A stretch of DNA of 27,386 bases from an uncultured Bryobacteraceae bacterium. GTDB taxonomy: Bacteria > Acidobacteriota > Terriglobia > Bryobacterales > Bryobacteraceae. The stretch spans positions 1-27,386 of the forward strand of contig CAXUCT010000006.1 of assembly GCA_964249415.1 (NCBI GenBank), read 5' to 3'. A program made the position numbers and the translations under genes. The stretch's first letter is position 1. Every line of letters begins with the position of its first letter. Shown here one piece after another: positions 6,375 to 25,816 of this stretch. The notes beneath the pieces were generated by a model that made no database searches, was not told where the DNA came from, and was given only the letters and a program-made list of their open reading frames with translations.

Positions 6375-7403
6375 GTGAAACTCTCGGATCAAAGGGTAGT
6401 CGTCTGCGGTGCCGGAGGATTTATTGGCGGTCATCTGGTCCAAGACCTTCTGAATAGCGGCGTTCGCGTCGTGCGGGCCGTTGATGTAAAGCCGCGCGCA
6501 GAGTGGTATCAGCAATCGGAGGCCGTAGAAAATCTTGTACTTGACTTGAAAAACAAGCAGGCCTGTGAGGAAGCTGTCGCAGGAGCTGGCGTCGTATTCA
6601 ATCTTGCGTCCGACATGGGCGGCATGGGTTTTATCGAAAACAACCGTGCTCTCTGCATGCTCAGCGTTCTGATCAACACTCACCTTTTGGTCGCGGCCCT
6701 CCAGGCCGGCATCAAGCGCTTTTTCTATGCGTCATCTGCCTGCGTCTATAACGGCGACAAGCAAAAGGACGCTCAAGTAACGCCGCTTAAAGAAGAAGAC
6801 GCCTATCCCGCGCTTCCGGAAGACGGATATGGTTGGGAAAAGCTTTTCAGCGAGCGCATGTGCCGGCACTTTAACGAAGATTTCGGGCTAGCATCGCGAA
6901 TTGCTCGATACCACAATGTGTACGGTCCGCTTGGCACTTACGAGGGCGGCCGCGAGAAGGCACCCGCTGCCATTTGCCGAAAGATAATTGAAGCGAAGCA
7001 CTCCGGAAAGAAAGAAATCGAAATCTGGGGAGATGGCAATCAAACTCGCAGTTTCATGTACATCGACGATTGCATCACCGGTACCAAGATGATCACCGAA
7101 AGCGACATTCGCGAGCCGGTGAATCTCGGCAGCAGTGAGTTAGTCACTATTAATCAACTCGTTGACATCGTGGAAGAGATCGCCGGACTGACACTAAAAA
7201 GACGCTATAACCTTAGCGCTCCCAAAGGTGTGAACGGCCGCAACAGCGACAACACCAAAATTCAGCAGTATCTGAATTGGGAGCCTTCTATCCGTCTCAA
7301 AGACGGTCTTGCTAAAACCTACGCCTGGATCGAGAGCCAAATGCTCGATTCATTAGAAAATCAATTTACTTACCCGCTCTCTCTCGCCGCTAAGCTCCCT
7401 TAG
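6375..7403 (+). CDS. NAD-dependent epimerase, GDP-mannose 3,5-epimerase (GME)-like extended SDR
   Basis: GAGGFIG Rossmann motif, DMGGMGFI, FFYASSACVY, YGWEK (YxxxK), RYHNVYGPLGTYEGGREKAPAAICRK and IWGDGNQTRSFMYIDDC. GTG start. Confidence 0.85.
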   Translation: MKLSDQRVVVCGAGGFIGGHLVQDLLNSGVRVVRAVDVKPRAEWYQQSEAVENLVLDLKNKQACEEAVAGAGVVFNLASDMGGMGFIENNRALCMLSVLINTHLLVAALQAGIKRFFYASSACVYNGDKQKDAQVTPLKEEDAYPALPEDGYGWEKLFSERMCRHFNEDFGLASRIARYHNVYGPLGTYEGGREKAPAAICRKIIEAKHSGKKEIEIWGDGNQTRSFMYIDDCITGTKMITESDIREPVNLGSSELVTINQLVDIVEEIAGLTLKRRYNLSAPKGVNGRNSDNTKIQQYLNWEPSIRLKDGLAKTYAWIESQMLDSLENQFTYPLSLAAKLP

Positions 7404-8945: not shown

Positions 8946-8958
8946 TTCCTTGCAGTTA

Positions 8959-10113
8959 ATGTTATCTACTTCAATCCAAAGTCAGGTCTCCCTCGACTCC
9001 GAATACGACGCCGTAATCGTCGGCGGTGGCTTTTATGGCTGCTGCTTGGCACTCGCGCTCGCACGCCGGCTCCCGCGCATTCTGATACTTGAGCGCGAGC
9101 GAGATCTCCTCACGCGTGCTTCCTACGCCAATCAGGCCCGCGTCCATAACGGCTATCACTATCCCCGAAGCTTGCTCACGGGAATGCGCTCCGCTGCGAA
9201 TTACCCGCGCTTCATCAAAGAGTTTGAAGATTGCATTGATCACACGTTCCATCAGGTCTACGCCATTGCGCGCGGCAGTTCAAAGGTCACGGCCTATCAG
9301 TTTCGCAAGTTTTGTGAACAGGTCGGCATTCCTGTAAAGCTCGCCCCACCGTCTATCCTGAAGCTCTTTAATCCAGCGTTGATTGAGGGTGCCGTCTCTA
9401 CTGAAGAATGCGCCTTTGACGCCGCCAAGCTAAGAGCCCGTATGCTCCTGAAGCTTCGGGAGGCCGGCGTTTCTGTTGCCTGCAATCAGGAAGCGGAACG
9501 CGTGCTCAAGGCTCCGGATAACTCCATCACAACAGTTCTGCGCGACGGCTCCGAAGTGAACTCTTCCTATGTCTTTAATTGCACTTACTCGCATATTAAC
9601 CAGCTGTTGGCCAGGTCCGGGTTGCCCAAGTTACCCCTGAAACACGAGACGGCTGAACTGGCCATCGTCGAAGTGCCCGATGTCTTAAGACGCGTTGGTC
9701 TGACTGTAATGGATGGTCCATTCTTTTCTTCCATGCCTTTCCCCGCGCTAGGGCTGCACAGCTTTTCTCACGTCAGGTATACACCCCATGAAAGCTGGAG
9801 CGATTTCAGCGGTGCGGATTCCACTCGCGGCCGCGCAGAACCCAAGTCCAACGCCGTATTCATGCTGAAGGACGCGCAGAGATTCGTTCCCGCGCTTCGC
9901 GACGCTCGCGTCGTTCAATCGCTATTTGAAACCAAAACTGTGCTCTTACAAAACGAAGTGGACGACGGCCGTCCCATACTCTGTCGAGCCGACCACGGAA
10001 TCAAAAACCTATTTGTCATCCTCGGAGCGAAAATCGACAACATCTACGACATTATCGAGACCCTCGAAGCCCGGCATTTCGAACGGAGGGCCGCCTATGA
10101 AGCCTGCTATTGA
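8959..10113 (+). CDS. FAD-dependent oxidoreductase (DAO-like Rossmann fold; alternative TTG start at 8950)
   Basis: AVIVGGGFYG dinucleotide-binding motif, ILERE, RASYANQARVHNGYHYPRS and C-terminal GAKIDNIYD. No signal peptide seen. Confidence 0.85.
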   Translation: MLSTSIQSQVSLDSEYDAVIVGGGFYGCCLALALARRLPRILILERERDLLTRASYANQARVHNGYHYPRSLLTGMRSAANYPRFIKEFEDCIDHTFHQVYAIARGSSKVTAYQFRKFCEQVGIPVKLAPPSILKLFNPALIEGAVSTEECAFDAAKLRARMLLKLREAGVSVACNQEAERVLKAPDNSITTVLRDGSEVNSSYVFNCTYSHINQLLARSGLPKLPLKHETAELAIVEVPDVLRRVGLTVMDGPFFSSMPFPALGLHSFSHVRYTPHESWSDFSGADSTRGRAEPKSNAVFMLKDAQRFVPALRDARVVQSLFETKTVLLQNEVDDGRPILCRADHGIKNLFVILGAKIDNIYDIIETLEARHFERRAAYEACY

Positions 10114-11119
10114 GCACATCAATACGGTAGAAATGAAAGATACTCCGCTGAATACCGACGTCGTTGTGTCGGTCTCAGCCATCTTGCCGCCTGACGCGCA
10201 AGCCATCGAATCCTTCGTTCGCGCCATGCTCGGCGTGCTGCGTTCCCGGTACTCCTATTACGAGCTTCTGCTGATCGATAATGGCCTGACACTTGGACTT
10301 AACAATCAAGTCCAGCTCCTCCAAGACGTGCTTCCTAACGTGCGCTTAGTCCGGCTCTCCCGTCACTACGGCAAAGAAGTAGCCATCGCGGCCGCGCTTG
10401 ACCATTGCATCGGCGATTACGTCGTGGTCATGGATCCAACCACCGATCCGCCTGAATTGGTCCCCGCCCTGATCGCGCGCGCCATTGCAGGCTGCGACAC
10501 GGTTGTCGCTGAACCGGCAAACCGTGCCCCTGGCCGCCTCCAGCAATACCTATCAGCGCCCGTTTACCGCCTCGCCAGCCGGATCCTAGGCTTTCCGCTG
10601 CGCCCCGATGAATCGTACTTCCGGGTCTTCAGCCGCCGCCTTGTTAACTCCATCATCAGGATCCGCAGTAAGAGCCGCTATCTTACGTGCCTGAACGGAT
10701 CCGTTGGTCTTCAATCCTGCACCATCTTCTACGACGCAGCCCAGCTCCGCCACAAACACTCGGCCTTGCGCCGCGTCGTCCGTCAGTTGATCGACGCCAG
10801 CGATATTCTTGTCTCAAACAGCGCCACGCCCTTGCGCTTCGCTTCTTTTCTTGGACTCGTCGCATGCGTCGCCAATCTGCTTTATCTGTTCTACATTCTC
10901 GGGGTCAGTTTGGTGAAGGCCCGCATCGCTGAGGGCTGGTTAACCACTTCCGTTACTCATACGTTGATGTTCCTGCTGATGTTCTTCATCATGACCATCC
11001 TTTCCGAGTACATTGCGCGCATTCTCGACGAGACAAAGGACCAGCCTCTCTATTTCGTCGAATCGGAAAGTAACAGCACGGTCTCTTCTGCAACACACGA
11101 ACGCCTTAACGTCGTCTAA
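10097..11119 (+). CDS. GtrB/ArnC-like GT2 membrane protein with degenerate catalytic motifs
   Basis: LSRHYGKEVAIAAALDH, DPPELV, two C-terminal TM helices and LSEYIARILDETKDQPLYFVE. Start reassigned from 9926 to ATG 10097, overlapping the oxidoreductase by 17 nt. Confidence 0.85.
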   Translation: MKPAIEHINTVEMKDTPLNTDVVVSVSAILPPDAQAIESFVRAMLGVLRSRYSYYELLLIDNGLTLGLNNQVQLLQDVLPNVRLVRLSRHYGKEVAIAAALDHCIGDYVVVMDPTTDPPELVPALIARAIAGCDTVVAEPANRAPGRLQQYLSAPVYRLASRILGFPLRPDESYFRVFSRRLVNSIIRIRSKSRYLTCLNGSVGLQSCTIFYDAAQLRHKHSALRRVVRQLIDASDILVSNSATPLRFASFLGLVACVANLLYLFYILGVSLVKARIAEGWLTTSVTHTLMFLLMFFIMTILSEYIARILDETKDQPLYFVESESNSTVSSATHERLNVV

Positions 11120-11140: not shown

Positions 11141-13123
11141 GTGAGTACCCAAATCACATCACAGCTCGCTACTGAACTGCTCCCAACGCCTCTTCCCCGG
11201 CAAGAGTCCGTCAGGCGTGATCTGGCCATTCTTCTTGTCTTAAGTGCATTGCTCTCCCTTGCGCGCTGGTGTACTCTCGAAAGCTTTTGGGGTGATTCGC
11301 CGCGCTGGATCTTCGAAGCGTATCGTGGCGCTTCGGGAGAGCTTCTGTATCGCGACTTTGCATGGCAGTATCCTCCCCTGCCGTTACTGTTGTGTAGCAG
11401 CGCCCTCCAATTGCTGGGCTCAACGTTTTGGTCGGTGCAACTGCTGCTCGATCTTGTTAGCGCGGCCGTCGTCATTTTGACATGGGACTTAGGCCGCCGG
11501 CTTCTGCCAAAGCCTCTGCCCTTACTCGCTGCCGCTGCCATGGCGTGTGCAGGTGCTTCGAACCCCAGTAACTTCGCGGTTTTGTCGATCAAGGTGTTTT
11601 ACACGTAATTCTTCGTCGGCATGATCGGCCTGCTCATCGTGTTGCGCGAGGTTGTCGATTATCTGCGGGCGGGGACCTGGGGTGCGCGCAGGCTAAGTTG
11701 GCTCGCCCTCGGAGCCGCGGTTTGTCTTCTCAGCAAGCCTGAGTACATTCTGGGCTTGGCCGGATGCTTGGCTGCTCTCGCTCTCGCCGACTTACGTGTT
11801 TGGTATCGAGACCGCACGTTCTCTTCCTGGCTCGTTCAGTACACCAAAATCTTGTTGGCATGCGTTGCTCCGTCGCTTATGGTCTACGCGGTATTCGCAT
11901 TTCTATGCGGCCCCCGAAACGTAATCGCCGGTGTAGGCGGATACGGACTCGCTGCCCTTAGCTGCCCCTGGTGGCCTACCGGACTCGGTCTGTTTGGCGC
12001 AGTGGCCGCACTCGGGTATGGAGTCATCGATGCCGCTCTCCTCTCGCTCACCCGTTTTACAGCTTTCAAGCAACGCTACGGCAGCCGGTATAACCTTCTT
12101 TGGGCCGCTACAGCCGTTGCGCTGGTAATCGCCGCGCTGTACTTACCGTTCTGCGCCGAGCTCCCCATGTTTCAGGGACACATCACGGTTCCTCGCGCGC
12201 TGACCTACTTTCTCTCTACCGGAACGGTCTTGCTCCCGGTCATGTGGTTCTCTATAGTCTTGTGTGGATGGCTGGCCGTGCGGCTGCTCAAATCTCTGAA
12301 AGCTCGCATCCGCTTTAGCACCGGCGATGCCATCCTGTTCAGCATTCTCAGTTCCGCAGTGCTGATCTCGCTCCGCGGCTTGTTCAACGGAACCATGAGT
12401 CAGCTTAGTCTTGCCAGCGTTGCTGCTTACCCGATCTGGTTCCTCATCGGTCCTTATTTATTGATCCGCGTTCTCCAGCGCGCCAAACCAACAAATCTCG
12501 AAGACCGCTTTAGCATTGCCTTTGCACCCTTCCCCGTCACAGCTGTCGTCGCGGTGTTTCTAGTCTTTCGGCTCCTTAATGTCGTAGCGGGCGAAGTGAG
12601 AAGGCCCTACGCCCGTATTGTCACTCCCGCGGGAACGGTCCGCGTAACCGACACATCCGTCAGTCCCCAAGTCTACGCTTACATTGCCGGCCACTCTTCT
12701 CCTCACGAGCCCATTCTTGATTTGGCCGGAGGCGGAGGTATCAACTTGGCAGACCGCCGGCCAAGTCCGCTCTTTTCTACCCAATTCACCGCCCTAGAGC
12801 CTCCCGCTAGATATCTACGACTCGATGAAAGCCTAATGCGTCAGCATCCCCCGCGGCTTGTCATTGCCAGTGCGGGCGCTAATTTCGGCGCCACTTACGG
12901 CATCTGCATGAACACCGGCTGTACCTTTCCTGTTTTAGTCTGGCGCTCCCACCGCCCGGCTTGTGAAGCTTCCGTAGCGTTTCCTGTGCTGGACTATGTC
13001 CGGCAAAACTATCATCCGCTCGCCCGCTTTGGCGACAAAATTATCTACTCCCGTCATGGCAGTTTAGATGAAAATCCGTTACCTAATACAACTAACCTTC
13101 TTAGCTCTGCTCACGCTCAGTAG
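11141..13123 (+). pseudogene. GT-C-like multi-TM membrane protein interrupted by an in-frame TAA at 11606-11608 (ORF track fragments 11141-11608 and 11621-13123)
   Basis: Both ORFs are in the same frame and read ...IKVFYT*FFVGMIGLL... N-terminal loop GDSPRW...GELLYRDFAWQYPP resembles GT-C lipid-linked-sugar transferases, followed by many TM segments and a C-terminal soluble domain. No SD before ATG 11621. Confidence 0.7.
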
Positions 13124-15104
13124 CGTGCTTGGTGGCGCAATTATAGATTCAGATTGGCGCTGCTATGGTAAGGACCCCGCCTTTACTCATTTCTCGAGCC
13201 TCGATCAGATCAACAAGGCGAACGCCGGCAATCTCCGGGTCGCGTGGGTTCACCACACCGGTCATGCTAATACAAGCCTGAAGACTACCATTGAGTGCAA
13301 TCCGCTGGTGGTGAATGGAACCGTCTATGTGACGTCACCTGTCTTAGAAGTGATTGCGCTCGAAGGCGCCACTGGCCGGCAAATTTGGAAGTATAACCCC
13401 TTTCCTTTTGAATACGATCTTTTTTATAACTGGCTCTTCTATCTCATCGTGCTCCTCGTTTCGGGGTCGCTCTGGCTCATGGTCCGAATGCGGAAACGAC
13501 AGAACGCCCCAGTTAGCGTCACCGTTCAGTGCGCGGCAGCCCTCTTTCTACTTGCCGGGGTCAGCCTCGATCCTCGCCACTTACTCACTCCCATGAACCA
13601 GGAGCGCCGGCAAGGGCCCAGCCGCGGGTTGAGCTACTGGGAATCCGGCTCGGACAAACGCATCTTCTTCGCCGGCGGCCATCATTTGATCGCGTTGAAC
13701 GCTCTCACAGGCAAGCCCATCCCCAGCTTTGGCGCAAACGGCAGTGTAGATCTCACGCAGGGCCTGGAGCGTAACATCGACGGCCAAATATACGCCGTCA
13801 CTACGCCTGGCGCCATCTATAAAGACCTCATCATTATCGGAGCGAAAGTAGGCGAAGGCCCGCTACCCGCCGCTCCTGGCGACGTTCGTGCTTTCGACGT
13901 GCGCACCGGAGAGCAGAAGTGGATCTTTCATACCATCCCTCATCCGGGTGAGGCCGGTTATGACACTTGGCCCGCCGATACCTGGAAACATGTCGGCGGC
14001 GCAAACCCTTGGGGCGGTATGAGTCTGGATCCCGTGCGCGGTTACGTCTTTGTGCCAACCGGTTCCGCAACGTTCGACTTCTACGGTGGTGATCGCGCCG
14101 GGAAGGACCTCTTCGCCGATTCGGTGATTGCGCTCCAAGCCGGTACCGGCAAGCTCGTCTGGTACTACCAGACAGTCCATCACAATCTGTGGGATTACGA
14201 TTTAGCGTCTCCACCGAATTTAGTGACAGTACAGCACGACGGAAAACCTGTCGACGCTGTCGTACAGCCTTCGAAAAGCGGTTTGGTCTTTGTGTTGAAT
14301 CGCGACACCGGCCAACCGTTGTTCCCCGTCGAAGAGCGCCCCGTACCGCAATCCACGCTCAATGGCGAGCAGGCGTGGGGCACCCAACCTTATCCGTTGA
14401 AACCACCGCCATTAGCGCGAACCGAGATTACAGAAAACGATTTAACTGATATCACGCCGCAAGCCCACGAGTTCGCTCTTCGTGAGTTCCGCAAAGCAGC
14501 GTCCGCTCGAATTTACGCTCCGCCCAGCACCCACCTGACGATCGTGACGCCGGGCTTCCACGGCGGAGCAAACTGGAGCGGATCTTCTGTCGATCCCCGT
14601 ACCGCGCGCCTGGTAGTCAATTCCAATGACATACCGTTCACGCTGCAAATGAGGACACCGAGGTTTTGGCAGCCATACAGATGGAGCTTTTACGGCTTTC
14701 ATCGATTCGCTGACCAGGACGGCTACCCTGCGGTTAAGCCGCCTTGGGGCAAACTGACCGAGATCAATCTCAATACCGGTGACATCGCCTGGCAGATTCC
14801 CTTGGGGGAATATCCGGAACTTGCCGCCAAGGGTATTCCAACTACTGGAACTGAGAACGCCGGCGGCTCCATCATCACCGCCGGAGGGCTCATCTTCATC
14901 GGGTCCACATTCGACGAAAAGTTCCGCGCTTTCGATGTCGATACCGGGAAACTGCTGTGGCAAACCAAGCTGGACGCAGCTGCACACGCGTCGCCCTCCA
15001 CTTACTCAATCAACGGCAAGCAGTACGTGCTAACGGCCGCTGCCGGCGGTTCCATGGTGGAGAGCCCGGCCGGTGACGAGTACGTCGCCTTCACTCTTCC
15101 CTAG
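13068..15104 (+). CDS. PQQ-dependent dehydrogenase (glucose/quinate dehydrogenase-like beta-propeller) with signal peptide and an internal hydrophobic insertion
   Basis: DWRCYGKD...HFSSLDQIN, ECNPLVVNG, GDVRAFDVRTG, GGANPWGGMSLD, HHNLWDYD, PGFHGGANWSG, PPWGKL, ENAGGSIITAGGLIFIG and repeated TG..LW propeller motifs. Confidence 0.9.
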   Translation: MKIRYLIQLTFLALLTLSSVLGGAIIDSDWRCYGKDPAFTHFSSLDQINKANAGNLRVAWVHHTGHANTSLKTTIECNPLVVNGTVYVTSPVLEVIALEGATGRQIWKYNPFPFEYDLFYNWLFYLIVLLVSGSLWLMVRMRKRQNAPVSVTVQCAAALFLLAGVSLDPRHLLTPMNQERRQGPSRGLSYWESGSDKRIFFAGGHHLIALNALTGKPIPSFGANGSVDLTQGLERNIDGQIYAVTTPGAIYKDLIIIGAKVGEGPLPAAPGDVRAFDVRTGEQKWIFHTIPHPGEAGYDTWPADTWKHVGGANPWGGMSLDPVRGYVFVPTGSATFDFYGGDRAGKDLFADSVIALQAGTGKLVWYYQTVHHNLWDYDLASPPNLVTVQHDGKPVDAVVQPSKSGLVFVLNRDTGQPLFPVEERPVPQSTLNGEQAWGTQPYPLKPPPLARTEITENDLTDITPQAHEFALREFRKAASARIYAPPSTHLTIVTPGFHGGANWSGSSVDPRTARLVVNSNDIPFTLQMRTPRFWQPYRWSFYGFHRFADQDGYPAVKPPWGKLTEINLNTGDIAWQIPLGEYPELAAKGIPTTGTENAGGSIITAGGLIFIGSTFDEKFRAFDVDTGKLLWQTKLDAAAHASPSTYSINGKQYVLTAAAGGSMVESPAGDEYVAFTLP

Positions 15105-15146: not shown

Positions 15147-16748
15147 ATGAAGTTATCGAGACCAATCCTCTTCGTCTTAGCGGGTATCGTTGTAGCCTCC
15201 TGCGTCGTTCTGGTCGCCGGACATCGATATAACGTAAAAGCGGAGTTCTCAAACGACGGACTGAAATCCCTACAATCCAACGGCTTCGACTTCCTCGGGA
15301 ATGGGGGCTTTTTCATCCATGATGTCTTCCTCCGAAACCCCAGCGGAGAAACTCGTCCGGGCGCCACGGATGGCGACCATACGTTCAATGCCCAGCGTCA
15401 GGAGCTTGATCGAACTTTTCCTTGGGGGCATATCAAAGTCACTTACTCCACGTCGCACAAGCGCCTTCTCCTCAGCATTCTCACTACAAACACGTCGGAT
15501 TCGGATACGATCCAGAGTGTCTGGTATCAGCCACTCACGCTGAAGTTACCTACGAAAGCCAAAGAGTACGATGGATCCATTCCGCTGCTCGCTTACAATG
15601 TCGGCGAGGTAGCAGTCTCCAAAGTTTCGTTCGACTCGGGAGCATTGGCGGCTGTAAGCGAAGACGTGGCAAAGCCGATACTAATCGGCTTTCCTTGGGC
15701 CGACAACCGGCCGGAGAACACGATTTTTCCTTTATCCGTAAGCACCGGGCGCGTGAAGTCCTACCCGGACAGCATTCCCGCCATCAATCGTCCCATCGCT
15801 CCTGGGAGCACCGACGAATACCGCCTATCAATTCGTTTTGGCCCTGTTTCGGAGACAGAAACTGAGTTTGCTTCCGATGTCTACCAGAAGTTTGGCAAGG
15901 TTTATCCCTCAACTTTGAACTGGCCGGACCGGCGTGCCATCGGCGCTATCTTCCTCGGTTCCTCGGGGGAGACCTCCGAAAACAACCCTCGTGCCTGGTT
16001 CGACGATCACAATCTGAACATCAACACTCCTGCCGGCTGCGCGGAGTTCCGCCGGCGCATATTAGGCCTGGCCGACAGCGCCGTCTCCATCATGAAAGAC
16101 ATGCATGCCCAGGGAGCAATCACTTGGGATATTGAAGGCGAACAGTACACGCACGCGAACTACATCGGTGATCCCCGCTTAACGAATGAACTCGCGCCGG
16201 AGATGGCTACTCTCGCCGATGAATACTTCGCTCGCTTTCGTCGCGCAGGTCTCCGCGTAGGCATCTGCATTCGGCCGCAGCAACTCCACGTTTCAGCGGA
16301 TAGGAAGGACGCTACCCAGATCGCCTTAGCCGATCCTACTCCCGTGCTGATTGACAAGATCAATTACGCGAAAAAGCGCTGGGGCGCTACGATCTTCTAC
16401 ATCGATTCGAACGTCAACTCTTACGACGCGAATCCCATGGATGTAAACGTAATGCAGAAGTTGAGCGCCACCTTCCCCGATGTCCTATTCGTGCCCGAGC
16501 ACTCGAATTTGCGCTATTACGCCTACTCCGCGCCGTATCGAGAACTGCGGCAAGGCTTCGCCGGTACCACCGACTTTACTCACGATACATACCCGAAGGC
16601 CTTCACGGTCATCTACACAGCCGATGGCCTGATCGACTACTACCACAAGAGCTTGGCCAGCGCCGTCAAAGGCGGCGACAGTCTGATGTATCGCACTTGG
16701 TGGCGCGATCCTCAGAACGACAAGCTCAAGATGCTCGCCAGCCGCTAA
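15147..16748 (+). CDS. Uncharacterised exported or membrane-anchored protein, putative glycoside-hydrolase-like (paralog of 25813-27386)
   Basis: N-terminal hydrophobic segment (ILFVLAGIVVASCVVLVAG), beta-rich N-terminal half, and a C-terminal half with WDIEG, YIGDP, APEM, RPQQ, RWGATIFYIDS, VPE shared with the minus-strand paralog. The CDS is solid; the function is inference. Confidence 0.75.
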   Translation: MKLSRPILFVLAGIVVASCVVLVAGHRYNVKAEFSNDGLKSLQSNGFDFLGNGGFFIHDVFLRNPSGETRPGATDGDHTFNAQRQELDRTFPWGHIKVTYSTSHKRLLLSILTTNTSDSDTIQSVWYQPLTLKLPTKAKEYDGSIPLLAYNVGEVAVSKVSFDSGALAAVSEDVAKPILIGFPWADNRPENTIFPLSVSTGRVKSYPDSIPAINRPIAPGSTDEYRLSIRFGPVSETETEFASDVYQKFGKVYPSTLNWPDRRAIGAIFLGSSGETSENNPRAWFDDHNLNINTPAGCAEFRRRILGLADSAVSIMKDMHAQGAITWDIEGEQYTHANYIGDPRLTNELAPEMATLADEYFARFRRAGLRVGICIRPQQLHVSADRKDATQIALADPTPVLIDKINYAKKRWGATIFYIDSNVNSYDANPMDVNVMQKLSATFPDVLFVPEHSNLRYYAYSAPYRELRQGFAGTTDFTHDTYPKAFTVIYTADGLIDYYHKSLASAVKGGDSLMYRTWWRDPQNDKLKMLASR

Positions 16749-16753
16749 GATAC

Positions 16754-17326
16754 ATGGAACTCCCGGCGCCTCTCATCGTTGATCTCGACGGTACTCTTGT
16801 CTTAACCGACACGCTGCATGAAGCGTTCCTTGCTTTGCTCCGAGTCAATCCCTGGCTTGCCTTCACGGCCCTGTTCTCCATACCGCAAGGCCGCGCCAAG
16901 TTCAAGGAGCGAATTGCAGAAGTCACGCCCTTGGAACTGGCACGCCTTCCCTACAACAGCGACCTCGTGCTTTATCTGAAGTCTCAGGGCCATCGTCGCT
17001 TGATCCTTGCCACGGGCGCTCCCAGGAAGATAGCTGCCGCAGTCGCGGCCCACTTAGGCATCTTTGAGTGCGTTCTTTGTACGGAAGGCAAAATCAACTT
17101 AACCGGCGAAAGAAAGGCCGTCGCCATTGCCAAGTATCTGAACGGTGGCGGTTTCGTCTACGCGGGCAACTCGCGCGCCGATCTGCCTGTATGGGCACGA
17201 GCTAAAGCTGCTCTTGTCGTGAACGCGTCTCCGTCTCTCGCTCGTGAAGTAAACAAGCTGGGCATCAACATAGACCGGGAGTTTCCACGTAGCGTTTCTC
17301 CCTGGCGGCTTCTCTTCCGTCGGTAG
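16754..17326 (+). CDS. HAD-superfamily phosphatase resembling the N-terminal domain of HAD-UbiA fusion proteins
   Basis: IVDLDGTL (motif I), LILATGA (motif II), GERKA (motif III) and YAGNSRADLPVW (motif IV). Start reassigned from 16697 to ATG 16754. Confidence 0.85.
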   Translation: MELPAPLIVDLDGTLVLTDTLHEAFLALLRVNPWLAFTALFSIPQGRAKFKERIAEVTPLELARLPYNSDLVLYLKSQGHRRLILATGAPRKIAAAVAAHLGIFECVLCTEGKINLTGERKAVAIAKYLNGGGFVYAGNSRADLPVWARAKAALVVNASPSLAREVNKLGINIDREFPRSVSPWRLLFRR

Positions 17327-17377
17327 CCTGGCTTAAACCCTCCACCCCGTCATTCGCGCAATAACGCGGTCTCTATC

Positions 17378-17381
17378 AGGA
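17378..17381 (+). promoter_or_regulatory. Shine-Dalgarno-like AGGA of the UbiA-family gene
   Basis: AGGA 8 nt upstream of ATG 17390. Confidence 0.45.
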
Positions 17382-17389
17382 TTTATTGC

Positions 17390-18391
17390 ATGTCAGCACC
17401 TGCTGTTCAACCTATTACAAAAGTTAACCGTCCCTCTCTCCGTGGACATCTCGCCATCGCGCGCATGGATCATTGGGTCAAGAATGTTTTCGTGTTGCCC
17501 GGTATTCTTATTCCACTTGTTGTCGACCCGGGACACTGGCCGCCTCGCTTAGCGCTCCGAATCATCATCGGATTGGCGTCCGTCTGTCTTATTACCTCAA
17601 GCAACTACGTCATCAACGAGGTTCTCGATGCGCCGTCGGATCGTTTTCACCCTCTCAAGTCATCCCGCCCGGTGCCTTCGGGAAAAGTCAGCATCCCGCT
17701 TGCTTACGTGCAATGGCTCGCCTTGATGGTCGTGGGACTCGCGCTCGCCGCCACCATATCCGTGCCCTTCCTGCTTACAATGGCTGCCCTTTGGGTTATG
17801 GGTTGCGCTTACAACATCGCGCCCATACGGACGAAAGATGTGCCCTATCTGGACGTCCTATCCGAATCCGTCAACAATCCGCTACGCATGTTAGCTGGCT
17901 GGTTTATTACTGGCACCTCCCTAATCCCTCCCGCCTCTCTCCTGTTCAGTTACTGGATGATTGGCTGTTACTTCATGGCTTTGAAACGCTATGCCGAATA
18001 CCGCGACCTTGACAACGTGAAGGTCGCCGCGCTCTACCGTAAATCGTTTGCATTTTATACGGAAGAACGCCTCCTCGCTTCCGTTCTTTTTTACAGTTCC
18101 GCGGCCATGCTCTTCTTCGGCGCCTTTATCATGCGGTACCGGTTGGAACTCCTCCTCGCCATCCCGTTAATCGCATTGGTTATGGCCTTCTATTTGGACC
18201 TGTCGTTCAAGCCCAATAGTGCGGTCCAACGGCCTGAAGGTTTATATCGCGAGCGCGGGCTGGTGGCCTCCGTCGTAGCATGCGCCATCTTCATCTTGGT
18301 CCTGTTCATGGTGGACATCCCCTGGGTGCGATCCATCTTCGCCCCCACCATCCCCACTGAGAGCGTTGTAAATACTCTGCCCGCGAGGTAG
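17390..18391 (+). CDS. UbiA-family prenyltransferase, polyprenyl-phosphate phosphoribosyltransferase (DPPR synthase, Rv3806c/NoeC-like)
   Basis: ARMDHWVKNVFV, SSNYVINEVLDAPSDRFHPLKSSRPVPSGKV, ALKRYAE and multiple TM helices. These match the DPPR-synthase subgroup rather than quinone UbiA/MenA. Confidence 0.85.
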   Translation: MSAPAVQPITKVNRPSLRGHLAIARMDHWVKNVFVLPGILIPLVVDPGHWPPRLALRIIIGLASVCLITSSNYVINEVLDAPSDRFHPLKSSRPVPSGKVSIPLAYVQWLALMVVGLALAATISVPFLLTMAALWVMGCAYNIAPIRTKDVPYLDVLSESVNNPLRMLAGWFITGTSLIPPASLLFSYWMIGCYFMALKRYAEYRDLDNVKVAALYRKSFAFYTEERLLASVLFYSSAAMLFFGAFIMRYRLELLLAIPLIALVMAFYLDLSFKPNSAVQRPEGLYRERGLVASVVACAIFILVLFMVDIPWVRSIFAPTIPTESVVNTLPAR

Positions 18392-18421
18392 CATGTTTCA
18401 ACACAACTGCGCCTTTCACAC

Positions 18422-20056
18422 ATGAACTCCGACACCGTCGCGCCATTTCACCAGGCCACGCCCGTTGCCGCCCTGCCCACTCTCGGCCTCACCCGCTCGC
18501 TACGTTTTGTGCCTTCGCTGCCCATTGCAATGGTGCTCATGGCCTTGCTCGCGCTGGGCTGTGGCTTAGCGAAAGGCGTTCTGTGGGGAGTGCCTCCGCC
18601 CGTTGCCCAGGATGAGTCCGGCTACCTTTTAAATGCCGACACGTTTGCCTCCGGTCGAATCACGAATCCAACACACCCCATGTGGCGGCACTTTGAATCT
18701 ATGTTTGTGATCCAACAGCCGACCTATACCAGCAAATACCCGCCCGGGCAGGGACTCGTGCTCGCATTGGGCCAAAAGGTGTTCGGCGAACCGATTGTTG
18801 GTGTGTGGCTGAGTACCGCTCTCGCCAGCGCGGCAATGTGTTGGATGTTTTGGCGATGGCTTACGCCTTCTTGGGCTCTCCTTGCTTCGCTCATCGCTGT
18901 CGCCCATCTCGTCGTCAACTACTGGAACTTCACCTATTGGGGAGGCTCCGTAGCGGCTCTGGGTGGCGCACTCGTCTTCGGAGGCTTGCGGCGTTTCCCG
19001 GCGGGTTTCCGTGCCATCGACGGCTTACTCGTCGGTCTCGGAATCGTCATCTTCGCTAATACCAGGCCCTTTGAAGGCTTGGTGACCTGCGCGGCGGCAG
19101 CGCTGGCTTTCGCTGCCTGGATGATTCGAGATCACATCCGCCTTCCAGTTGCCATCTTGCTCCGGATGTTTGTGCCGCTGGCTGCTGTCCTGGCGCTCGC
19201 CGCATTCTGGATCGGCTTCTATAACTACCGTACGACTGGTAGCGTGCTGACGTTTGCGCAAGGTGTTCACTCGGAGGCGTACTACCCGGTTCCGGTTTTG
19301 GTTTTCCAGCACCCTGGGCCGGCGCCTACGTTCGATCACGAGTACATGAGAGTTCAATACCTGAGGGACATTCAAGAGTTTCAAAAGCAACGGTCCATTC
19401 CCGGCTTCGTTGCCGCGGCCCGGACGAAGTTCCTGGCCATTTGGGGCTTCTACGTTGGCATCGGCCTTACACTGCCCTTGTTTGCGTTGCCGCTTCTTCT
19501 TAAGAATCCCTGGATGCGTTTTGCACTCTCCGTCTGCGCGGTGAGTCTGGCCGTGATGTTTTTTGAGACTTGGCTCTTTCCGCACTATGCTGCTCCTATT
19601 GCGCCGCTTTTATTCCTGATTCTGACCGAATGCCTGATAGCTCTCTCGCCTTGGCAGTGGCGCGGTCTACCGCTCGGCAGAGGACTCGTTGCTTTAGTCG
19701 TGCTCTTCCACATTGCTCTTGTCGGGTTCGCGATATTTCACCGTCCGCAATACATCGCGACCCGCGAGCCTTGGGCCCTCGCCCGGCAGCAAATCCTTCA
19801 GCGCCTTGGACATGACGGACACAATCATTTGGTGATCGTTCGCTACGCCGCCAATCACACGCCCGATGCGGAGTGGGTCTATAACAAAGCAGATCTCGAC
19901 AAGACACCGGTGGTCTGGGCCCACGAAATGTCAGGCGAGGATGAACGTAAAATCCTCAACTACTATTCGAATCGCTACGTTTGGCTGCTCGAAGCGGATA
20001 CCAAACCGCCCCGCCTTTCCCCTCTTCGCGCTGCCCTGCCTGTTTCCGTAAACTAA
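18422..20056 (+). CDS. GT-C-like membrane glycosyltransferase (paralog of 23048-24754)
   Basis: First loop [25 protein letters not shown] with acidic DE pair, KYPPGQG, NTRPFEG, many TM segments and C-terminal VIVRY...EWVYNKADLD..VVWA domain. Confidence 0.72.
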   Translation: MNSDTVAPFHQATPVAALPTLGLTRSLRFVPSLPIAMVLMALLALGCGLAKGVLWGVPPPVAQDESGYLLNADTFASGRITNPTHPMWRHFESMFVIQQPTYTSKYPPGQGLVLALGQKVFGEPIVGVWLSTALASAAMCWMFWRWLTPSWALLASLIAVAHLVVNYWNFTYWGGSVAALGGALVFGGLRRFPAGFRAIDGLLVGLGIVIFANTRPFEGLVTCAAAALAFAAWMIRDHIRLPVAILLRMFVPLAAVLALAAFWIGFYNYRTTGSVLTFAQGVHSEAYYPVPVLVFQHPGPAPTFDHEYMRVQYLRDIQEFQKQRSIPGFVAAARTKFLAIWGFYVGIGLTLPLFALPLLLKNPWMRFALSVCAVSLAVMFFETWLFPHYAAPIAPLLFLILTECLIALSPWQWRGLPLGRGLVALVVLFHIALVGFAIFHRPQYIATREPWALARQQILQRLGHDGHNHLVIVRYAANHTPDAEWVYNKADLDKTPVVWAHEMSGEDERKILNYYSNRYVWLLEADTKPPRLSPLRAALPVSVN

Positions 20057-20063
20057 CGCCGCC

Positions 20064-21284
20064 GTGGCCACTGCACTTCTCACCAATAGCCGGGGAATTT
20101 CATCCCGAGTCCGGCAGATTGTCAACATCCGCATACCGGAGCTGGACGGTCTGCGCGGATGCGCCATCCTTCTCGTTCTCCTGTTCCACTGCGGTACCTT
20201 CAATGCCACCAACTGGCAGGCGAGGCTGTTGCGGCTGGGTACTGGAGTGAGTCTCGGCTGGTCGGGAGTGGATCTTTTCTTCGTCCTTTCAGGCTTCCTC
20301 ATCACCGGAATCCTGCTTGAGACCAAGGGTTGCTTCAACTATTTCTCCTCTTTCTACGCGCGCCGCGTACTGCGCATCTTTCCGTTGTACATGGCCTTCG
20401 TGCTGATCTTCTTTTGGATCGCTCTCCCGATTGCTCATGCGTTCGGCCATGGCATGGAGATAAAGTACTCCGCCCAGATCTGGTATTGGCTCTATGTATC
20501 GAACTGGCGGGTCGGCCTCGGACTTACTCACGAAGATTATTTGAACCACTTCTGGTCGCTGGCTATCGAGGAGCAGTTCTACCTCATTTGGCCGTTGGTC
20601 GTTTCCCTTATTTCTGAGCGGCTACTGCTGAGGTTGTGCGGCGTCATTATCGTAGGCTGTCTCGCGCTGCGCACTTCGCTGGTCCACCTGCTTCCCGCCG
20701 CGGCCATCAATTTTCTCACCCCTTTCCGCATCGATACGCTCGCGTTTGGAGCGGTCGTTTGTCTCCTCTTCAGGAACGCTGACTGGTTAGCGCGCTATCG
20801 ACGGCAGAACACTCGCGTCCTCTGGGCAGCGAGCTTAGGGCTGATTATTCTGGTGGTCTTCTGCGGCGCGGTCAGTGTCGAGCATATCGCCGTCCGGACT
20901 ATCGGGTACACGCTATTCGCGGCCTTTTACGCCTCCTTAGTCTTCGGAGCCGCCGCGAGTTCCGGTGCAGCCGGTTCGTTCGTCACTGTCCTGCGCAGCC
21001 GTTTTCTAAGGACTTTCGGAAAATATAGTTACGGCATCTATGTCATACACATGCCGGTGTACATCATCGTTCGTCATCTTCTTAACCGGCTTAGCGAGCA
21101 CTGGCATCGCGACTACAACGCGCCTTTTGCCTTTCTGTGCGTAGTGGCATGCTCGCTTATCTCGTATGGACTCGCGCGCGTGTCCTGGAAATTGCTCGAA
21201 CAGCCGTTCCTTCGCATGAAGGAACGTTTTCCCTATTGCCTGGATTCCAACATTGAGCCAAACACTAACAGATCATCAGGTTGA
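20064..21284 (+). CDS. Acyltransferase-3 family (OafA/OatA-like) membrane O-acyltransferase
   Basis: RIPELDGLRG, GVDLFFVLSGFLIT, FYARRVLRIFPLY, HFWSLAIEEQFY, FGKYSYGIYVIH and LEQPF. GTG start. Confidence 0.93.
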   Translation: MATALLTNSRGISSRVRQIVNIRIPELDGLRGCAILLVLLFHCGTFNATNWQARLLRLGTGVSLGWSGVDLFFVLSGFLITGILLETKGCFNYFSSFYARRVLRIFPLYMAFVLIFFWIALPIAHAFGHGMEIKYSAQIWYWLYVSNWRVGLGLTHEDYLNHFWSLAIEEQFYLIWPLVVSLISERLLLRLCGVIIVGCLALRTSLVHLLPAAAINFLTPFRIDTLAFGAVVCLLFRNADWLARYRRQNTRVLWAASLGLIILVVFCGAVSVEHIAVRTIGYTLFAAFYASLVFGAAASSGAAGSFVTVLRSRFLRTFGKYSYGIYVIHMPVYIIVRHLLNRLSEHWHRDYNAPFAFLCVVACSLISYGLARVSWKLLEQPFLRMKERFPYCLDSNIEPNTNRSSG

Positions 21285-21297
21285 CGCGGCAAAGGCA

Positions 21298-23013
21298 ATG
21301 CGGAACCCGCTTGCTTCACGCCATCGCGTAGGTCTCCTGTGCGCCTTTCTGACGGCCCTGTGCATCCTCGCCACCTACCCGGTGCTCGAAATGGGGACGA
21401 ACGACGATTGGTCCTACGTTCGCACTGCGTTCGACATGGCGCGGACCGGCCACCTGCTTTACAACGGCTGGGCCACCGCCATGCTCGGCTGGCAAATTTA
21501 TTGGGGCGCTCTTTTCGTCAAGCTATTTGGCTTCTCGTTTCTCGCTGTCCGTCTTTCCACGTTGCCCTTGGCCGCAGCTTCGGGTTATCTCCTGTACCAG
21601 GTTTTTATCTGGTTTGGAGTCAACCCCCGCAATGCTGCGCTGGGCACGTTGACCGTTGTCGTCTCGCCTGTCTTCCTGCCGGTGGCGGCAAGCTTTATGA
21701 CGGACGTGCCCGGGTTCCTGCTTCTTCTCGCCTCGCTGTATGCCTGCCTCAAGGCCCTTGATGCCACGAAGAGTCAGACTGCTTTTGCCTGGCTCGCGAT
21801 AGCTACCGTTGTCAGCGTCGGCGGCGGAACCGCCCGGCAAACCGTCTGGTTGGGCGCCTTGGTCATTGTTCCTTCCACGGCTTGGCTGCTGCGCCGCTCG
21901 GCGGGCCTGCTGGCCGGTACCGCTGTTCTTTGGGTGGGTACTCTGGTGACGATCCTTGCGGTCATGCACTGGTATGCCCAGCAGCCCTACGCTATACCCG
22001 AGAAGTTCTTCGACCAAAGCCTCAAGTTGCGACTTCTGTCCACTCTCGCGCAGCAGACGCGGAACTCACTTCTCACGGTGCTGCTGGTCCTCTTTCCCGT
22101 GTTAACGGCTTACCTAACCGGCTTCCGAACGGTTTCAAAGAAGCTCGCCTTGGCAGTGTTCGCGGCTGCGATGTTGCTGATCGCCCTTCGAACGCACGGC
22201 GCACATTCACTGGTGCTGGCGCCCTGGCTGCCCAATATGATTTCCGAATACGGAGTCTTAGGAAACGGTGAGTTGGAAAACCTCGGAACAAAGCCCATCG
22301 TGCTTGGATTTTTCGTAAGACTCATTATCACCTTGGCCGTCTTCTTGGCCAGTTCCGTCTTTGTGGCTTCCTTATTTAACCGCGCTTCTTGGCTTGAGCC
22401 TGCAAAAAGGCTCGCGCCTTCCTGGTTTGTTACAGCCGTTCTCCTTGGCCCTCTCACGCTCGCCTACCTCCTCTTACTTACGCCGAGGGCTGCTTTTGCC
22501 ATCAATATTGACCGTTACCTCATTCCGGTATTCGCGCTGCTCTCCATCCCCATCCTGCGTTTCTATCAAGAGCGAGTGCAGGAGCGCGCGCCCGCCTACA
22601 GCTTTGCTGTACTGGCGCTCTTTACCCTCTACGGCGTAGCATCAACCCACGACTACTTCGCTACCAATCGCGCCCGCTTGACCGCGGCGGAAAACGTCAG
22701 AAGCAGCGGCGTCCCCCGCACCGCTATTCAGGGCGGTTGGGAATACGATGCCTGGACGCAACTGCAACTGGCCGGTTACATCAACGATTGGCGCATCGAA
22801 TATCCGCCGGATGCCTTTCACGAAACAAGCTTGCTGAAACTCCCGCAGCCATGCCGCTTCTGGTGGAGCAAATACACGCCTGTTATCACCCCTCGCTACT
22901 TTGTCGTGTTCTCTCCCCAACCATGCCTCGCGCCGTCCCGCTTTGCGCCTGTCCAGTACCGCACTTGGTTGCCGCCTTTTCAACGGGAGATCGATGTTCA
23001 GCAGCTGCCTTAG
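21298..23013 (+). CDS. GT-C (ArnT/PMT, GT39/GT83-like) membrane glycosyltransferase (alternative TTG start at 21253)
   Basis: MGTNDDWSY acidic loop after TM1, GHLLYNGW, SFMTDVP, about 12 TM segments by eye and a C-terminal soluble domain (IQGGWEYDAW). Confidence 0.78.
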   Translation: MRNPLASRHRVGLLCAFLTALCILATYPVLEMGTNDDWSYVRTAFDMARTGHLLYNGWATAMLGWQIYWGALFVKLFGFSFLAVRLSTLPLAAASGYLLYQVFIWFGVNPRNAALGTLTVVVSPVFLPVAASFMTDVPGFLLLLASLYACLKALDATKSQTAFAWLAIATVVSVGGGTARQTVWLGALVIVPSTAWLLRRSAGLLAGTAVLWVGTLVTILAVMHWYAQQPYAIPEKFFDQSLKLRLLSTLAQQTRNSLLTVLLVLFPVLTAYLTGFRTVSKKLALAVFAAAMLLIALRTHGAHSLVLAPWLPNMISEYGVLGNGELENLGTKPIVLGFFVRLIITLAVFLASSVFVASLFNRASWLEPAKRLAPSWFVTAVLLGPLTLAYLLLLTPRAAFAINIDRYLIPVFALLSIPILRFYQERVQERAPAYSFAVLALFTLYGVASTHDYFATNRARLTAAENVRSSGVPRTAIQGGWEYDAWTQLQLAGYINDWRIEYPPDAFHETSLLKLPQPCRFWWSKYTPVITPRYFVVFSPQPCLAPSRFAPVQYRTWLPPFQREIDVQQLP

Positions 23014-23047: not shown

Positions 23048-24754
23048 ATGAAGATATTTTCTTCTAACGCCGATCTTCTGTTGCTGGAAGCTGCGGTGTA
23101 CTTCGCTGCCTCCATTGTCGCGATAATGTTCCCGCGCGTACGCCCGGCTTGGCTCCAATTGGCAAGACACGCATTTAAGCGCCTCGCCCAGCGGCGTGCA
23201 CTCGCCGTAGGCTTCGTGGTGGCATTTGTACTTGCCCTGCGGGGAGCACTGCTTCCTCTTTTGCCGCCGCCTGTGCCGGGTGTACATGACGAATTCAGCT
23301 ATCTCTTGGCCGCTGATACGTTCGCGTCGGGACGACTGACAAATCCGGCGCATCCGCTCTGGCAGTATTTCGAGAGCTTTCATATCATCCAGCACCCAAC
23401 ATACGCCTCCATGTATCCCCCGGCGCAAGGGTTGATGTTGGCGTTCGGGAAGGTAATCGGCGGAAGTCCCTGGATCGGCGTGTACCTCAGCGCGGCACTT
23501 ATGTGTGGCGCTATTTGCTGGATGCTCCAAGCTTGGGTACCGCCGCAATGGGCGCTCATGGGCGGCTTGATTGCCGCACTGCGATGGGGCATCTACAGTT
23601 ACTGGATGGAAAGCTATTGGGGCGGCGCGGTAGCCGCATTGGCCGGAGCGCTGGCCGTCGGTGCCCTTCTGCGCATCTTCAAGGAGCGGAGCGTTTGGCC
23701 GGCGGCGACATTGGGCATGGCATTGATCCTCCTCGCAAACAGCCGTCCCTATGAGGGCCTCCTCTTTACTGTTCCCGTCCTCGGCGCGCTTTGTCTCTGG
23801 ATGATCGGTAAGCATTCACCGAAAGCGCCGGTCTTATTAACGCGCGTAGTGCTCCCGCTAGTGGTTGTATCGGCGCTGGGAACGGCGGCAACCGGCTATT
23901 ACTTCTGGCGCGTGACCGGCAATCCGATGCGCATGCCCTATCAGGTAGACGAAGACACATACGCTGTGACCAACCCGCTTCTTTGGCAACCGCTGCGCCC
24001 GATTCCCGAATACCACAATGCGGTCATGCGCAGTTATTACCCCGTCCGTGAGATGGCCGCTTACCGGCAGGCGCATTCCTGGAATGGCTGGTTGCTGGAG
24101 ACATGGCGCAAGATCACTACTTTGGTCTTCTTCTACTTCTGGCCTGCCGTCTTGCCGGTGCTATTGGCAACACCTTTTTTATGGAGGAACCGCCGCGCTC
24201 GGTTCGCCCTCGTCGTTGCCGGCATTATGCTCCTCGGTCTGACACTTGAAATCTGGCCGATGATGCTGCATTACCACGCGCCGATTACCGGATTGATTGT
24301 CCTGCTCATCATCCAAACAATGCGTTACTGGCGGCATGTAAAGTGGCGCGGCCGGCCGGTGGGCGCCGCCATCTCCCGAACGATACCGCTATTCTGTGCG
24401 TCGCTCCTCCTTGTTCGGCTGGGCGCCGCCGTGCTTCACGTTCCCGTTCCAGACCACGGCATGACACCCTGGTTCTCGGTTGCATCCGGAAATCTGCAAC
24501 GCGCCAGAATCCTGCATTATCTGGAAGGCCAACCCGGCCGGCAACTGGTTGTGGTTCGATACCAACCGGATCACGATGCTGGTGACGAATGGGTGTATAA
24601 CGAAGCGGATATCGATAGTGCAAAAGTAGTTTGGGCCCGCGACGCCGGATTGAGAAATGATGCCCCGCTTCTCCGTTATTTCAATAGTCGCCATGTGTGG
24701 CTTCTGGAGGCCGATAAGACGCCGCCGCATCTGAGCCGCGGTCTTTGCCCATAG
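23048..24754 (+). CDS. GT-C-like membrane glycosyltransferase (paralog of 18422-20056)
   Basis: [40 protein letters not shown] and C-terminal VVVRY...[14 protein letters not shown]. Confidence 0.72.
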
Positions 24755-24820: not shown

Positions 24821-25816
24821 ATGATTTCTACCGTAATTCCTATCTTCAACGAAGAAGAGAACCTGCCCGAATTGCGACGGCGGGTGACGGCGGCGCTTGA
24901 TTACACAGGTAGCGGCTGGGAATTGATTCTTGTGAATGATGGCAGCAGAGACCGCTCCGAGCAGATCATTCGAAGCTACGCACGCGAAGACCCGCGCATC
25001 AAGCTGGTCTCGTTCTCGCGCAACTTCGGGCACCAGCCTGCCGTCACCGCCGGTATCCATCACGCCGGCGGCGGTTGCGTTGTGCTGATGGACGGCGACA
25101 TGCAAGATCCTCCGGAAATCATTCCGGAGATGGTAGCGAAATGGCGCGAGGGTTATCAAATCGTGCGCGCGGAACGCCATAGCCGCGCAGAAGGCGGCCT
25201 GCGCGGCCTCGGTTTCCGGCTCTTCTATCCTCTGCTCCGCAAAGTCACTGACCTGCCGGACGGCGGCGAGGCGGGCATCTTCGGCCTGATGGATCGCGTT
25301 GTAGTGGACGAGTTCAACAAGCTTCCGGAGCGCAACCGCTTTATTCCGGGGTTGCGCTCCTGGCTTGGGTATTCGCAAGCAAGCGTGTTCTATGACCGCC
25401 AGGACCGCGCCGCCGGACAGCCCAAGCAAACCCTGAGCCGCCTGATTAAATACGCGCTCGACGCCATGATCAGTTTCATCAACAATCCGCTGCGACTGGC
25501 TACCTGGATGGGAGTGATGATTTCGGCTTTCGCCTTCGTCATTGTGATGATCTATCTAATCGCGTACTTTGTGCAAACCAATCCGCCTCCTCGCGGATTC
25601 ACTTCGATTCTGATTGCGGTGCTCTTTCTAGGCGGAGTCCAACTCGTGTGCCTCGGCATCCTGGGCGAGTACATCGGCCGCATTTACGAAGAAACGAAGC
25701 AGCGCCCGCTTTACATAGTTCGAGACCTGGTGGGTTTCGGTTCCTCCGAAGCGGAGCGGCAAACTTCGCGTGCAACGGCCGCGGGCGTGAACGGCGCAGC
25801 CGGTTACGCCCGCTAG
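24821..25816 (+). CDS. GT2 polyprenol-phosphate glycosyltransferase (GtrB/ArnC/DPM1-like), catalytic motifs intact
   Basis: VIPIFNEEEN, VNDGSRDRS, FSRNFGHQPA, MDGDMQDPPE, ERNRFIPGLRSWLGY, two TM helices and GEYIGRIYEETKQRPLY. Confidence 0.92.
   Translation: MISTVIPIFNEEENLPELRRRVTAALDYTGSGWELILVNDGSRDRSEQIIRSYAREDPRIKLVSFSRNFGHQPAVTAGIHHAGGGCVVLMDGDMQDPPEIIPEMVAKWREGYQIVRAERHSRAEGGLRGLGFRLFYPLLRKVTDLPDGGEAGIFGLMDRVVVDEFNKLPERNRFIPGLRSWLGYSQASVFYDRQDRAAGQPKQTLSRLIKYALDAMISFINNPLRLATWMGVMISAFAFVIVMIYLIAYFVQTNPPPRGFTSILIAVLFLGGVQLVCLGILGEYIGRIYEETKQRPLYIVRDLVGFGSSEAERQTSRATAAGVNGAAGYAR

Follow-up and report, generated by a model that had tools for sequence, protein, structure and literature searches.

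The contig analysed here comes from an uncultured Bryobacteraceae bacterium (assembly GCA_964249415.1, contig CAXUCT010000006.1, G000:C6 in our set) and was examined over its full 27,386 nucleotides, hereafter the window. It carries three consecutive genes of the same orientation (positions 16754 to 20056, Table 1) which encode a stand-alone HAD-family phosphatase, a UbiA-superfamily membrane enzyme and a glycosyltransferase of the GT-C fold. Most likely the trio belongs to the three-component system already published for extracytoplasmic pentofuranose glycosylation, here with its donor-synthase genes split. We consider it probable that the module makes a lipid-linked pentofuranose derived from phosphoribosyl pyrophosphate (PRPP), that the GT-C enzyme uses it, and that unmodified ribose is its likeliest form. 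A sequence-only reading of this DNA had reported a HAD gene, then a UbiA gene of the decaprenyl-phosphate phosphoribosyltransferase (DPPRS) type, then a GT-C gene at 18422, and all three lie at or near these places. It had also proposed a lipid-linked ribofuranose route distinct from the cytoplasmic PRPP-using enzymes known for O-antigen ribose. The chemistry of that proposal is supported by PRPP contact residues, the fold of the mycobacterial enzyme, homology to fused HAD proteins and recurrent HAD and GT-C neighbours. The route is not undescribed: it was published in 2024 for Citrobacter O antigens (PMC11127046), and the locus is a new example, not a new pathway or mechanism. What is new here is modest, namely the split genes, a divergent UbiA clade, no recognisable flippase at the locus and an exopolysaccharide (EPS) setting rich in GT-Cs.

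The prototype was described in Citrobacter youngae (Kelly et al. 2024, PNAS, PMC11127046). In this organism ORF15, which joins an N-terminal HAD phosphoribose phosphatase (PRP) to a C-terminal UbiA-type polyprenyl-phosphate phosphoribosyltransferase (PPPRS), has been biochemically shown to make polyprenyl-phospho-ribofuranose from PRPP. The MATE protein ORF14 is the proposed flippase, and ORF12, a GT-C enzyme (GT136), attaches ribofuranose (Ribf) to the O antigen on the periplasmic side. Optional add-ons modify the sugar: the short-chain dehydrogenase/reductase (SDR) ORF13 leads to xylofuranose (Xylf) and DprE1/DprE2 to arabinofuranose (Araf). According to the authors, the system is widespread and some loci hold several GT-Cs (PMC11127046).

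From the observed gene identities, folds, contact residues and neighbourhoods we infer the following substrates, product, sugar and acceptor for the Bryobacteraceae module. At the cytoplasmic face the UbiA enzyme would transfer ribose-5-phosphate from PRPP to polyprenyl (probably undecaprenyl) phosphate, and the stand-alone HAD would strip the 5-phosphate to yield polyprenyl-P-ribofuranose. The lipid-linked ribofuranose would be flipped across the membrane, a step for which no candidate flippase gene is seen at the locus. In the periplasm, the GT-C encoded at 18422-20056, and possibly its paralogs, would then attach the pentofuranose to an exopolysaccharide, whose synthesis would fall to the Wzx/Wzy-type genes of the window's first 9 kb.

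The reading frame of the phosphatase extends from a TTG at 16697 to 17326. Translation probably starts at the ATG at 16754, because the upstream gene stops at 16748, six bases from this ATG, and the family match begins at that methionine. Besides the Pfam HAD match (E 7.8e-11), the protein aligns with positions 9-196 of NCBIfam NF006088, the model of fused HAD–UbiA proteins (E 1.1e-50). Motif I is intact (DLDGT, residues 10-14), with D10 and D12 forming the DxD nucleophile motif. The HAD has about 1,700 matches among longer proteins, essentially all of 475-500 amino acids and carrying both PF12710 and PF01040; the window HAD is 43-51% identical to their N-terminal HAD domain over more than 90% of its length. 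In one of these fused homologs (P0244) the UbiA half matches the Mycobacterium tuberculosis phosphoribosyltransferase structure 8j8j at 1e-30. Since these longer homologs are fused HAD–UbiA proteins, the window HAD can be seen as a free-standing copy of the phosphatase domain usually fused to DPPRS-like enzymes. Like the PRP of the three-component system, it is a HAD with a catalytic aspartate associated with a PPPRS-like protein, here as a separate gene 63 nt upstream of UbiA. No match was found for it among PDB sequences.

The UbiA protein contains the expected domain (Pfam UbiA, E 1.8e-21). Its best NCBIfam match is also NF006088 (9e-26, positions 186-384), followed by three decaprenyl-phosphate phosphoribosyltransferase models (1.6e-22 to 9e-19). 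Among solved structures, 8j8j is the best sequence match (phmmer, E 5.9e-12) and also the best fold match of the predicted model (pLDDT 74; TM-scores 0.68/0.77, root-mean-square deviation 3.9). In Rv3806c, the M. tuberculosis enzyme, Mg is contacted by N73 and D77, the pyrophosphate of PRPP by R22, K87, R90, K143 and Y138, the ribose 5-phosphate by K28, Y70 and Y157, and the ribose by Q135 (PMC10994848). These contacts were mapped through a phmmer alignment to 8j8j and a MAFFT alignment with the Tsukamurella DPPRS. Nine of the eleven are kept as identical or basic residues (R25, K31, Y73, N76, D80, K90, R93, Y141 and K149), and all nine are invariant across 31 members of the clade to which the window enzyme belongs, as is D84. 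Equally invariant in these 31 proteins are loop II (N76-E77-V-L-D80-A-P-S-D84) and loop IV (K199-R200-Y-A-E203, KRYAE). The window enzyme thus has the loop II pattern N-D-xx-D-xxx-D of the PPPRS component, with Glu for Asp at the second position, and its loop IV R..E; it also has the KRxxE motif, a target of mutagenesis in the work of Kelly et al. (PMC11127046). Contact residues and predicted fold together support PRPP chemistry, short of proof.

The third gene starts 30 nt past the UbiA stop. Its 544-residue product has no Pfam or NCBIfam match, and more than 1,600 homologs were found. An AlphaFold model built from 32 of these (pLDDT 88) matches only GT-C enzymes: PglB, ArnT, ALG9/12, AftD, EmbC, AftA and AftB, each with a fold-match probability of 1.00, and also STT3. 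D64-E65 in the first periplasmic loop is invariant. Homologs stand directly 3′ of UbiA in two related loci (L006 and L007). The GT-C component of the three-component system is present, encoded together with the donor synthase.

Compared with the C. youngae O1/O2 system, the locus shares the HAD phosphoribose phosphatase, the DPPRS-like UbiA and the GT-C, the HAD-then-UbiA order, the N-(D/E)-xx-D-xxx-D and KRxxE motifs, the placement in a polysaccharide locus and the absence of a requirement for DprE1/E2. It differs in that HAD and UbiA are two genes instead of one fused ORF15, in its divergent UbiA and in the lack of a MATE or GtrA gene. In addition, four or five GT-Cs and two GtrB-like donor synthases accompany the module, which sits in a Wza/Wzc/Wzy EPS locus from a soil metagenome-assembled genome (MAG), whereas the C. 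youngae setting is an ABC-transporter O antigen. The fused NF006088 (PRK08238) family aligns with both window proteins in the same order, as a single polypeptide of about 480 amino acids instead of two reading frames; neither reaches its cut-off of 351 bits (HAD 172.7, UbiA 90.5), the UbiA part being far more divergent. The mycobacterial decaprenyl-phospho-arabinose pathway (Rv3806c DPPRS, Rv3807c PAP2 phosphatase, DprE1/DprE2 and the Aft/Emb GT-Cs) likewise has a PRPP-dependent UbiA-type enzyme, predicted here, a step of 5-phosphate removal and several periplasmic GT-C users per locus. In contrast to that pathway, the phosphatase here is a HAD and not a PAP2 protein, no homolog of the GtrA-like Rv3789 is present, and UbiA stays below the cut-offs of the curated DPPRS models. 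A further comparison is with the UbiA-HAD-GtrA operon of Rhizobium johnstonii 3841 pRL10 (L104, 325107-327156; known from annotation only). Its UbiA belongs to the same broad clade (39% identity), has the NYxINE..D..D and SKD..YLDV.SES.NNP motifs in common with the window enzyme and adjoins a HAD hydrolase; the operon differs in running from UbiA to HAD, in having a GtrA-family flippase candidate and in having no adjoining GT-C. As its host is cultured and genetically tractable, this operon would offer a convenient experimental model for the clade.

A scan of one genome per species yielded 408 confirmed loci of the UbiA clade, with 57-77% identity between MAGs of many phyla (labelled Acidobacteriota, Gemmatimonadota, Myxococcota, Planctomycetota, Chloroflexota and others). 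Yet a search of 30 same-genus and same-order genomes did not find the clade, a patchy distribution that points to horizontal spread of the locus or, perhaps, to mis-binning of the contig. Of 69 related loci with a called UbiA frame, 30 have a HAD gene no more than three genes away and 37 a GT-C. The commonest Pfam families among 112 direct UbiA neighbours are HAD (24), PMT_2 GT-C (17), GT2 (6), methyltransferases (5) and DAO (4); FAD_binding_4, ALO and adh_short are absent from the 25 commonest families of this set. Across 80 related loci (L006-L085) the partner is a HAD-IA protein (CTE7-like) in 29 and a PRP-like HAD-IB in only 6, and the GT-C partners represent seven or more sequence clusters. 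In this clade the donor synthase behaves as a portable module. Extended GalE-like SDR genes adjoin UbiA or HAD-UbiA in several related loci (L051:8727-9734, L047:7249-8355, L037 and L070) and are candidates for ORF13-like lipid-linked pentose epimerases. In a phage collection, the search for an ORF15-like example gave a single weak, unannotated match.

DprE1 was sought with NF053785 (FAD_binding_4 plus ALO, cut-off 500 bits) and DprE2 with NF053786 (cut-off 250 bits), an accession obtained via an Acidimicrobiaceae locus. Neither occurs in the window, as the sequence-only reading had stated. The genome-wide search it had called for found no ortholog in the 79.6%-complete assembly: the best DprE1 match, at 50 bits, is GlcD, no ALO domain is present, and the best DprE2 match reaches 69.7 bits. 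Because DprE1/DprE2 orthologs were not found, no arabinose route is evident and the sugar most likely stays ribofuranose. The closest syntenic relative compared, G031, a Terriglobia MAG with 77% identity in which all window genes are conserved (homologs closer than these, at 91% identity, occur on other contigs), has no DprE1-like gene genome-wide, DprE2 not having been searched there. Ten reading frames scanned in its flanks (±20 kb) contain no SDR/epimerase, MATE or GtrA domain and include Wza, Wzc and a PEP-CTERM protein. Among 50 genomes carrying the UbiA clade, 37 have no DprE1-like gene (E <= 1e-30) and 13 have one; only in an Acidimicrobiaceae MAG does it lie within about 7 kb of the clade UbiA, beside a second, canonical UbiA. 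The earlier suggestion that the donor may stay polyprenyl-P-ribofuranose gains support from the DprE1/E2 searches of the assembly and from these 37 genomes.

Several candidates for these two enzymes were set aside. The four FAD_binding_4 genes of the assembly encode GlcD, a GlcD-like protein, GlcE and MurB. The two commonest neighbours of the UbiA clade, of DprE1- and DprE2-like size (about 430 and 260 amino acids), proved to be a PMT_2 GT-C and a HAD-IA hydrolase. ALO-domain matches of DprE1-like length occur in two Bryobacteraceae genomes, and the one checked (G035) is a xylitol-oxidase homolog (E 1e-120). The frame following a myxobacterial DprE1-like gene (L088:2398-3213) was ruled out as DprE2. 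Near the Tsukamurella DPPRS, no dprE1/E2 lies within the 46 kb examined.

A number of points weigh against the proposed ribofuranose module. The proposed pathway is read from sequences and predicted structures. UbiA falls below every curated DPPRS cut-off (NF008976-8: 80.3, 75.6 and 67.9 bits against 234, 207 and 474) and shares only 29% identity with the UbiA half of a fused protein. Two ribose-side contacts of Rv3806c are replaced, Q135 by Gly and Y157 by Asn, and the second residue of NDxxD (D74 in Rv3806c) is Glu. The uncharacterised UbiA homolog of Archaeoglobus fulgidus is nearly as good a match as 8j8j and ranks second by fold (TM-scores 0.61/0.69). Several GT-Cs of the locus could use the donor, the product of 18422-20056 being the likeliest user and its paralogs possible others. 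A dedicated flippase (MATE in the prototype, GtrA or SMR in relatives) was sought, and no MatE, GtrA or Polysacc_synt match occurs among the window reading frames, nor was GtrA (PF04138) found in the assembly at its given completeness. The missing fifth of that assembly may hold dprE1/E2. Finally, three same-strand oxidoreductases which the earlier reading did not mention, an SDR, a DAO flavoprotein and a dehydrogenase dependent on pyrroloquinoline quinone (PQQ), could modify the sugar.

The last two points bear on the most serious competing explanation, which keeps the same donor route and has the lipid-linked ribose converted into another pentofuranose (Xylf, Araf or a keto or oxidised form) before or after transfer. 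The converter would be the window SDR acting like ORF13, the DAO flavoprotein, the periplasmic PQQ dehydrogenase, or DprE1/E2 encoded in the unassembled 20%. We judge such a conversion rather unlikely. A precedent exists in C. youngae O2, where a GalE-like SDR by itself turns undecaprenyl-phospho-Ribf into undecaprenyl-phospho-Xylf (PMC11127046), and in several loci, L051 and L047 among them, an extended SDR adjoins the clade UbiA or HAD-UbiA. The window SDR, however, lies 10 kb upstream of the module, where it adjoins the initiating phosphoglycosyltransferase. It resembles enzymes of nucleotide-sugar metabolism (Fcl, LegB, GalE) and shares only about 25-28% identity with the UbiA-adjacent SDRs of related loci; it is most likely a nucleotide-sugar enzyme, a lipid-linked pentose epimerase being possible. 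DAO-family genes are direct UbiA neighbours in four loci, yet the window DAO has an ortholog in L006 only. Its gene overlaps the start of the GtrB/ArnC-like GT2 gene, and the pair is likewise conserved only in L006. The PQQ dehydrogenase, which has five N-terminal transmembrane segments, accompanies the HAD-UbiA module only in L006 and L007, and for an epimerisation such a periplasmic quinoprotein would lack an evident reductase partner. As for DprE1/E2 in the missing part of the assembly, the syntenic G031 lacks a DprE1-like gene altogether.

A more specific version concerns this locus and its relatives L006 and L007, in which the membrane-anchored periplasmic PQQ quinoprotein (two genes upstream of HAD) or the DAO flavoprotein that is paired with a GtrB-like protein would process lipid-linked ribofuranose while several GT-Cs build, outside the cytoplasm, a pentofuranose-rich side structure on an acidobacterial EPS. 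This seems quite unlikely to us; if true, a modified pentofuranose would arise by a new route, oxidative or epimerising, through enzymes unrelated to DprE1/E2. A PqqC search of the assembly gave no match, the control genomes being silent too.

Two further explanations are, taken jointly, improbable. According to the first, which we find very unlikely, UbiA is a true prenyltransferase with an aromatic or other small acceptor, or a lipid-synthesis enzyme, and its adjacency to HAD and GT-C is incidental. The sub-threshold DPPRS scores would fit this idea, as would the near-equal similarity to the A. fulgidus homolog, which was crystallised with prenyl diphosphates, and residues ~145-166 (PIRTKD..DV) are closer to that protein than to Rv3806c. 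On the other hand, the first transmembrane segment carries R-x3-W-x-K-N which, together with Y73, corresponds to binders of the PRPP pyrophosphate and 5-phosphate in Rv3806c; these residues are invariant in the clade, and such phosphoribose sites are reported not to be conserved among UbiA prenyltransferases (PMC10994848). Furthermore, the clade repeatedly has GT-Cs and HAD phosphatases of two subfamilies as neighbours, the Rhizobium homolog sits in a UbiA-HAD-GtrA operon, and Pfam and NCBIfam scans of the window reading frames detected no aromatic-pathway genes. The second, which has the HAD as an unrelated sugar-phosphate phosphatase for nucleotide-sugar supply and the UbiA product keeping its 5-phosphate or losing it to another enzyme, could invoke the promiscuity of HAD enzymes and the missing PDB match, but is hardly credible given the 43-51% identity, over more than 90% of its length, to the HAD domain of the fused proteins, the best match to the N-terminal half of NF006088 and the short distance to UbiA.

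If the ribofuranose module is read correctly, it carries the three-component pentofuranose pathway beyond the O antigens of enterobacteria, into EPS loci of uncultured soil bacteria. It also indicates that the donor-synthase module can be split and pairs with two HAD subfamilies and many GT-Cs. This may help in annotating genes labelled 'UbiA prenyltransferase' in polysaccharide loci and in predicting Ribf-type side chains.

Table 1. Features of the 27,386-nucleotide window in order of position (Pfam and NCBIfam scans unless noted)
Feature	Positions	Strand	Basis or remark
Four to five GT4 glycosyltransferases, Wzy-like polymerase, hexapeptide acyltransferase	left part of window		
Extended SDR (epimerase/dehydratase family)	6375..7403	+	Resembles Fcl, LegB, GalE
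WecA/MraY-type initiating transferase			Follows the SDR
DAO-family flavoprotein	8950..10113	+	
GtrB/ArnC-like GT2	within 8950..11119		Follows the DAO gene
Interrupted GT-C gene	11141..13123	+	In-frame TAA at 11606-11608
Membrane-anchored PQQ-dependent dehydrogenase (glucose/quinate family)	13068..15104	+	PF01011 E 9e-188; TIGR03074 E 7e-139
Exported 533-aa protein	15147..16748		
Stand-alone HAD-family phosphatase, predicted phosphoribose 5-phosphatase (PRP-like)	16754..17326	+	NF006088 and fused homologs
UbiA-superfamily membrane enzyme, predicted polyprenyl-phosphate 5-phosphoribosyltransferase (PPPRS/DPPRS-like, divergent clade)	17390..18391	+	Pfam, NCBIfam, 8j8j
GT-C-fold glycosyltransferase (544 aa, polytopic), no Pfam family, likeliest lipid-linked pentofuranose user	18422..20056	+	Fold of predicted model
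Acyltransferase-3 membrane O-acyltransferase	20064..21284	+	PF01757 E 9.7e-28; glycan tailoring, same operon
Second GT-C candidate	21253..23013	+	Weak PMT_2 match, 10 predicted transmembrane segments
Third GT-C candidate	23048..24754	+	Paralog of 18422-20056, 36% identity
GtrB/PgfS-like polyprenyl-phosphate hexosyltransferase	24821..25816	+	NF047588 E 2.2e-80; two C-terminal transmembrane segments; separate lipid-linked donor route
Paralog of 15147-16748	25813..27384	-	

The window is a whole contig of a MAG in 523 contigs, and nearly all of its genes lie on the plus strand with short intergenic gaps. It represents a Wzx/Wzy-type (Wza/Wzc/Wzy) EPS locus with many GT-Cs. Scanned for promoters and terminators, the operon was not enriched in terminator-like sites, none of which was listed in the HAD-UbiA or UbiA-GT-C gaps; the trio is presumably co-transcribed. 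The interrupted GT-C gene has an intact ortholog of 695 amino acids in L006, with Pro at the position of the TAA and both flanks well conserved. The stop reflects either an error of assembly or a nonsense mutation that arose recently. Of the two GtrB-like proteins, the GtrB/ArnC-like GT2 scores 123 bits to PgfS and its paralog at 24821-25816 scores 270.

The gene between the PQQ dehydrogenase and HAD (15147-16748) encodes a protein with a signal or anchor segment at its N-terminus. It is paralogous to the last gene of the window (34% identity), and the two form a family without a Pfam entry for which the protein-atlas features indicate clusters of DUF6259 and glycoside-hydrolase-like proteins. 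In the syntenic relative (L114), a 1,760-residue protein encoded downstream begins with a third copy.

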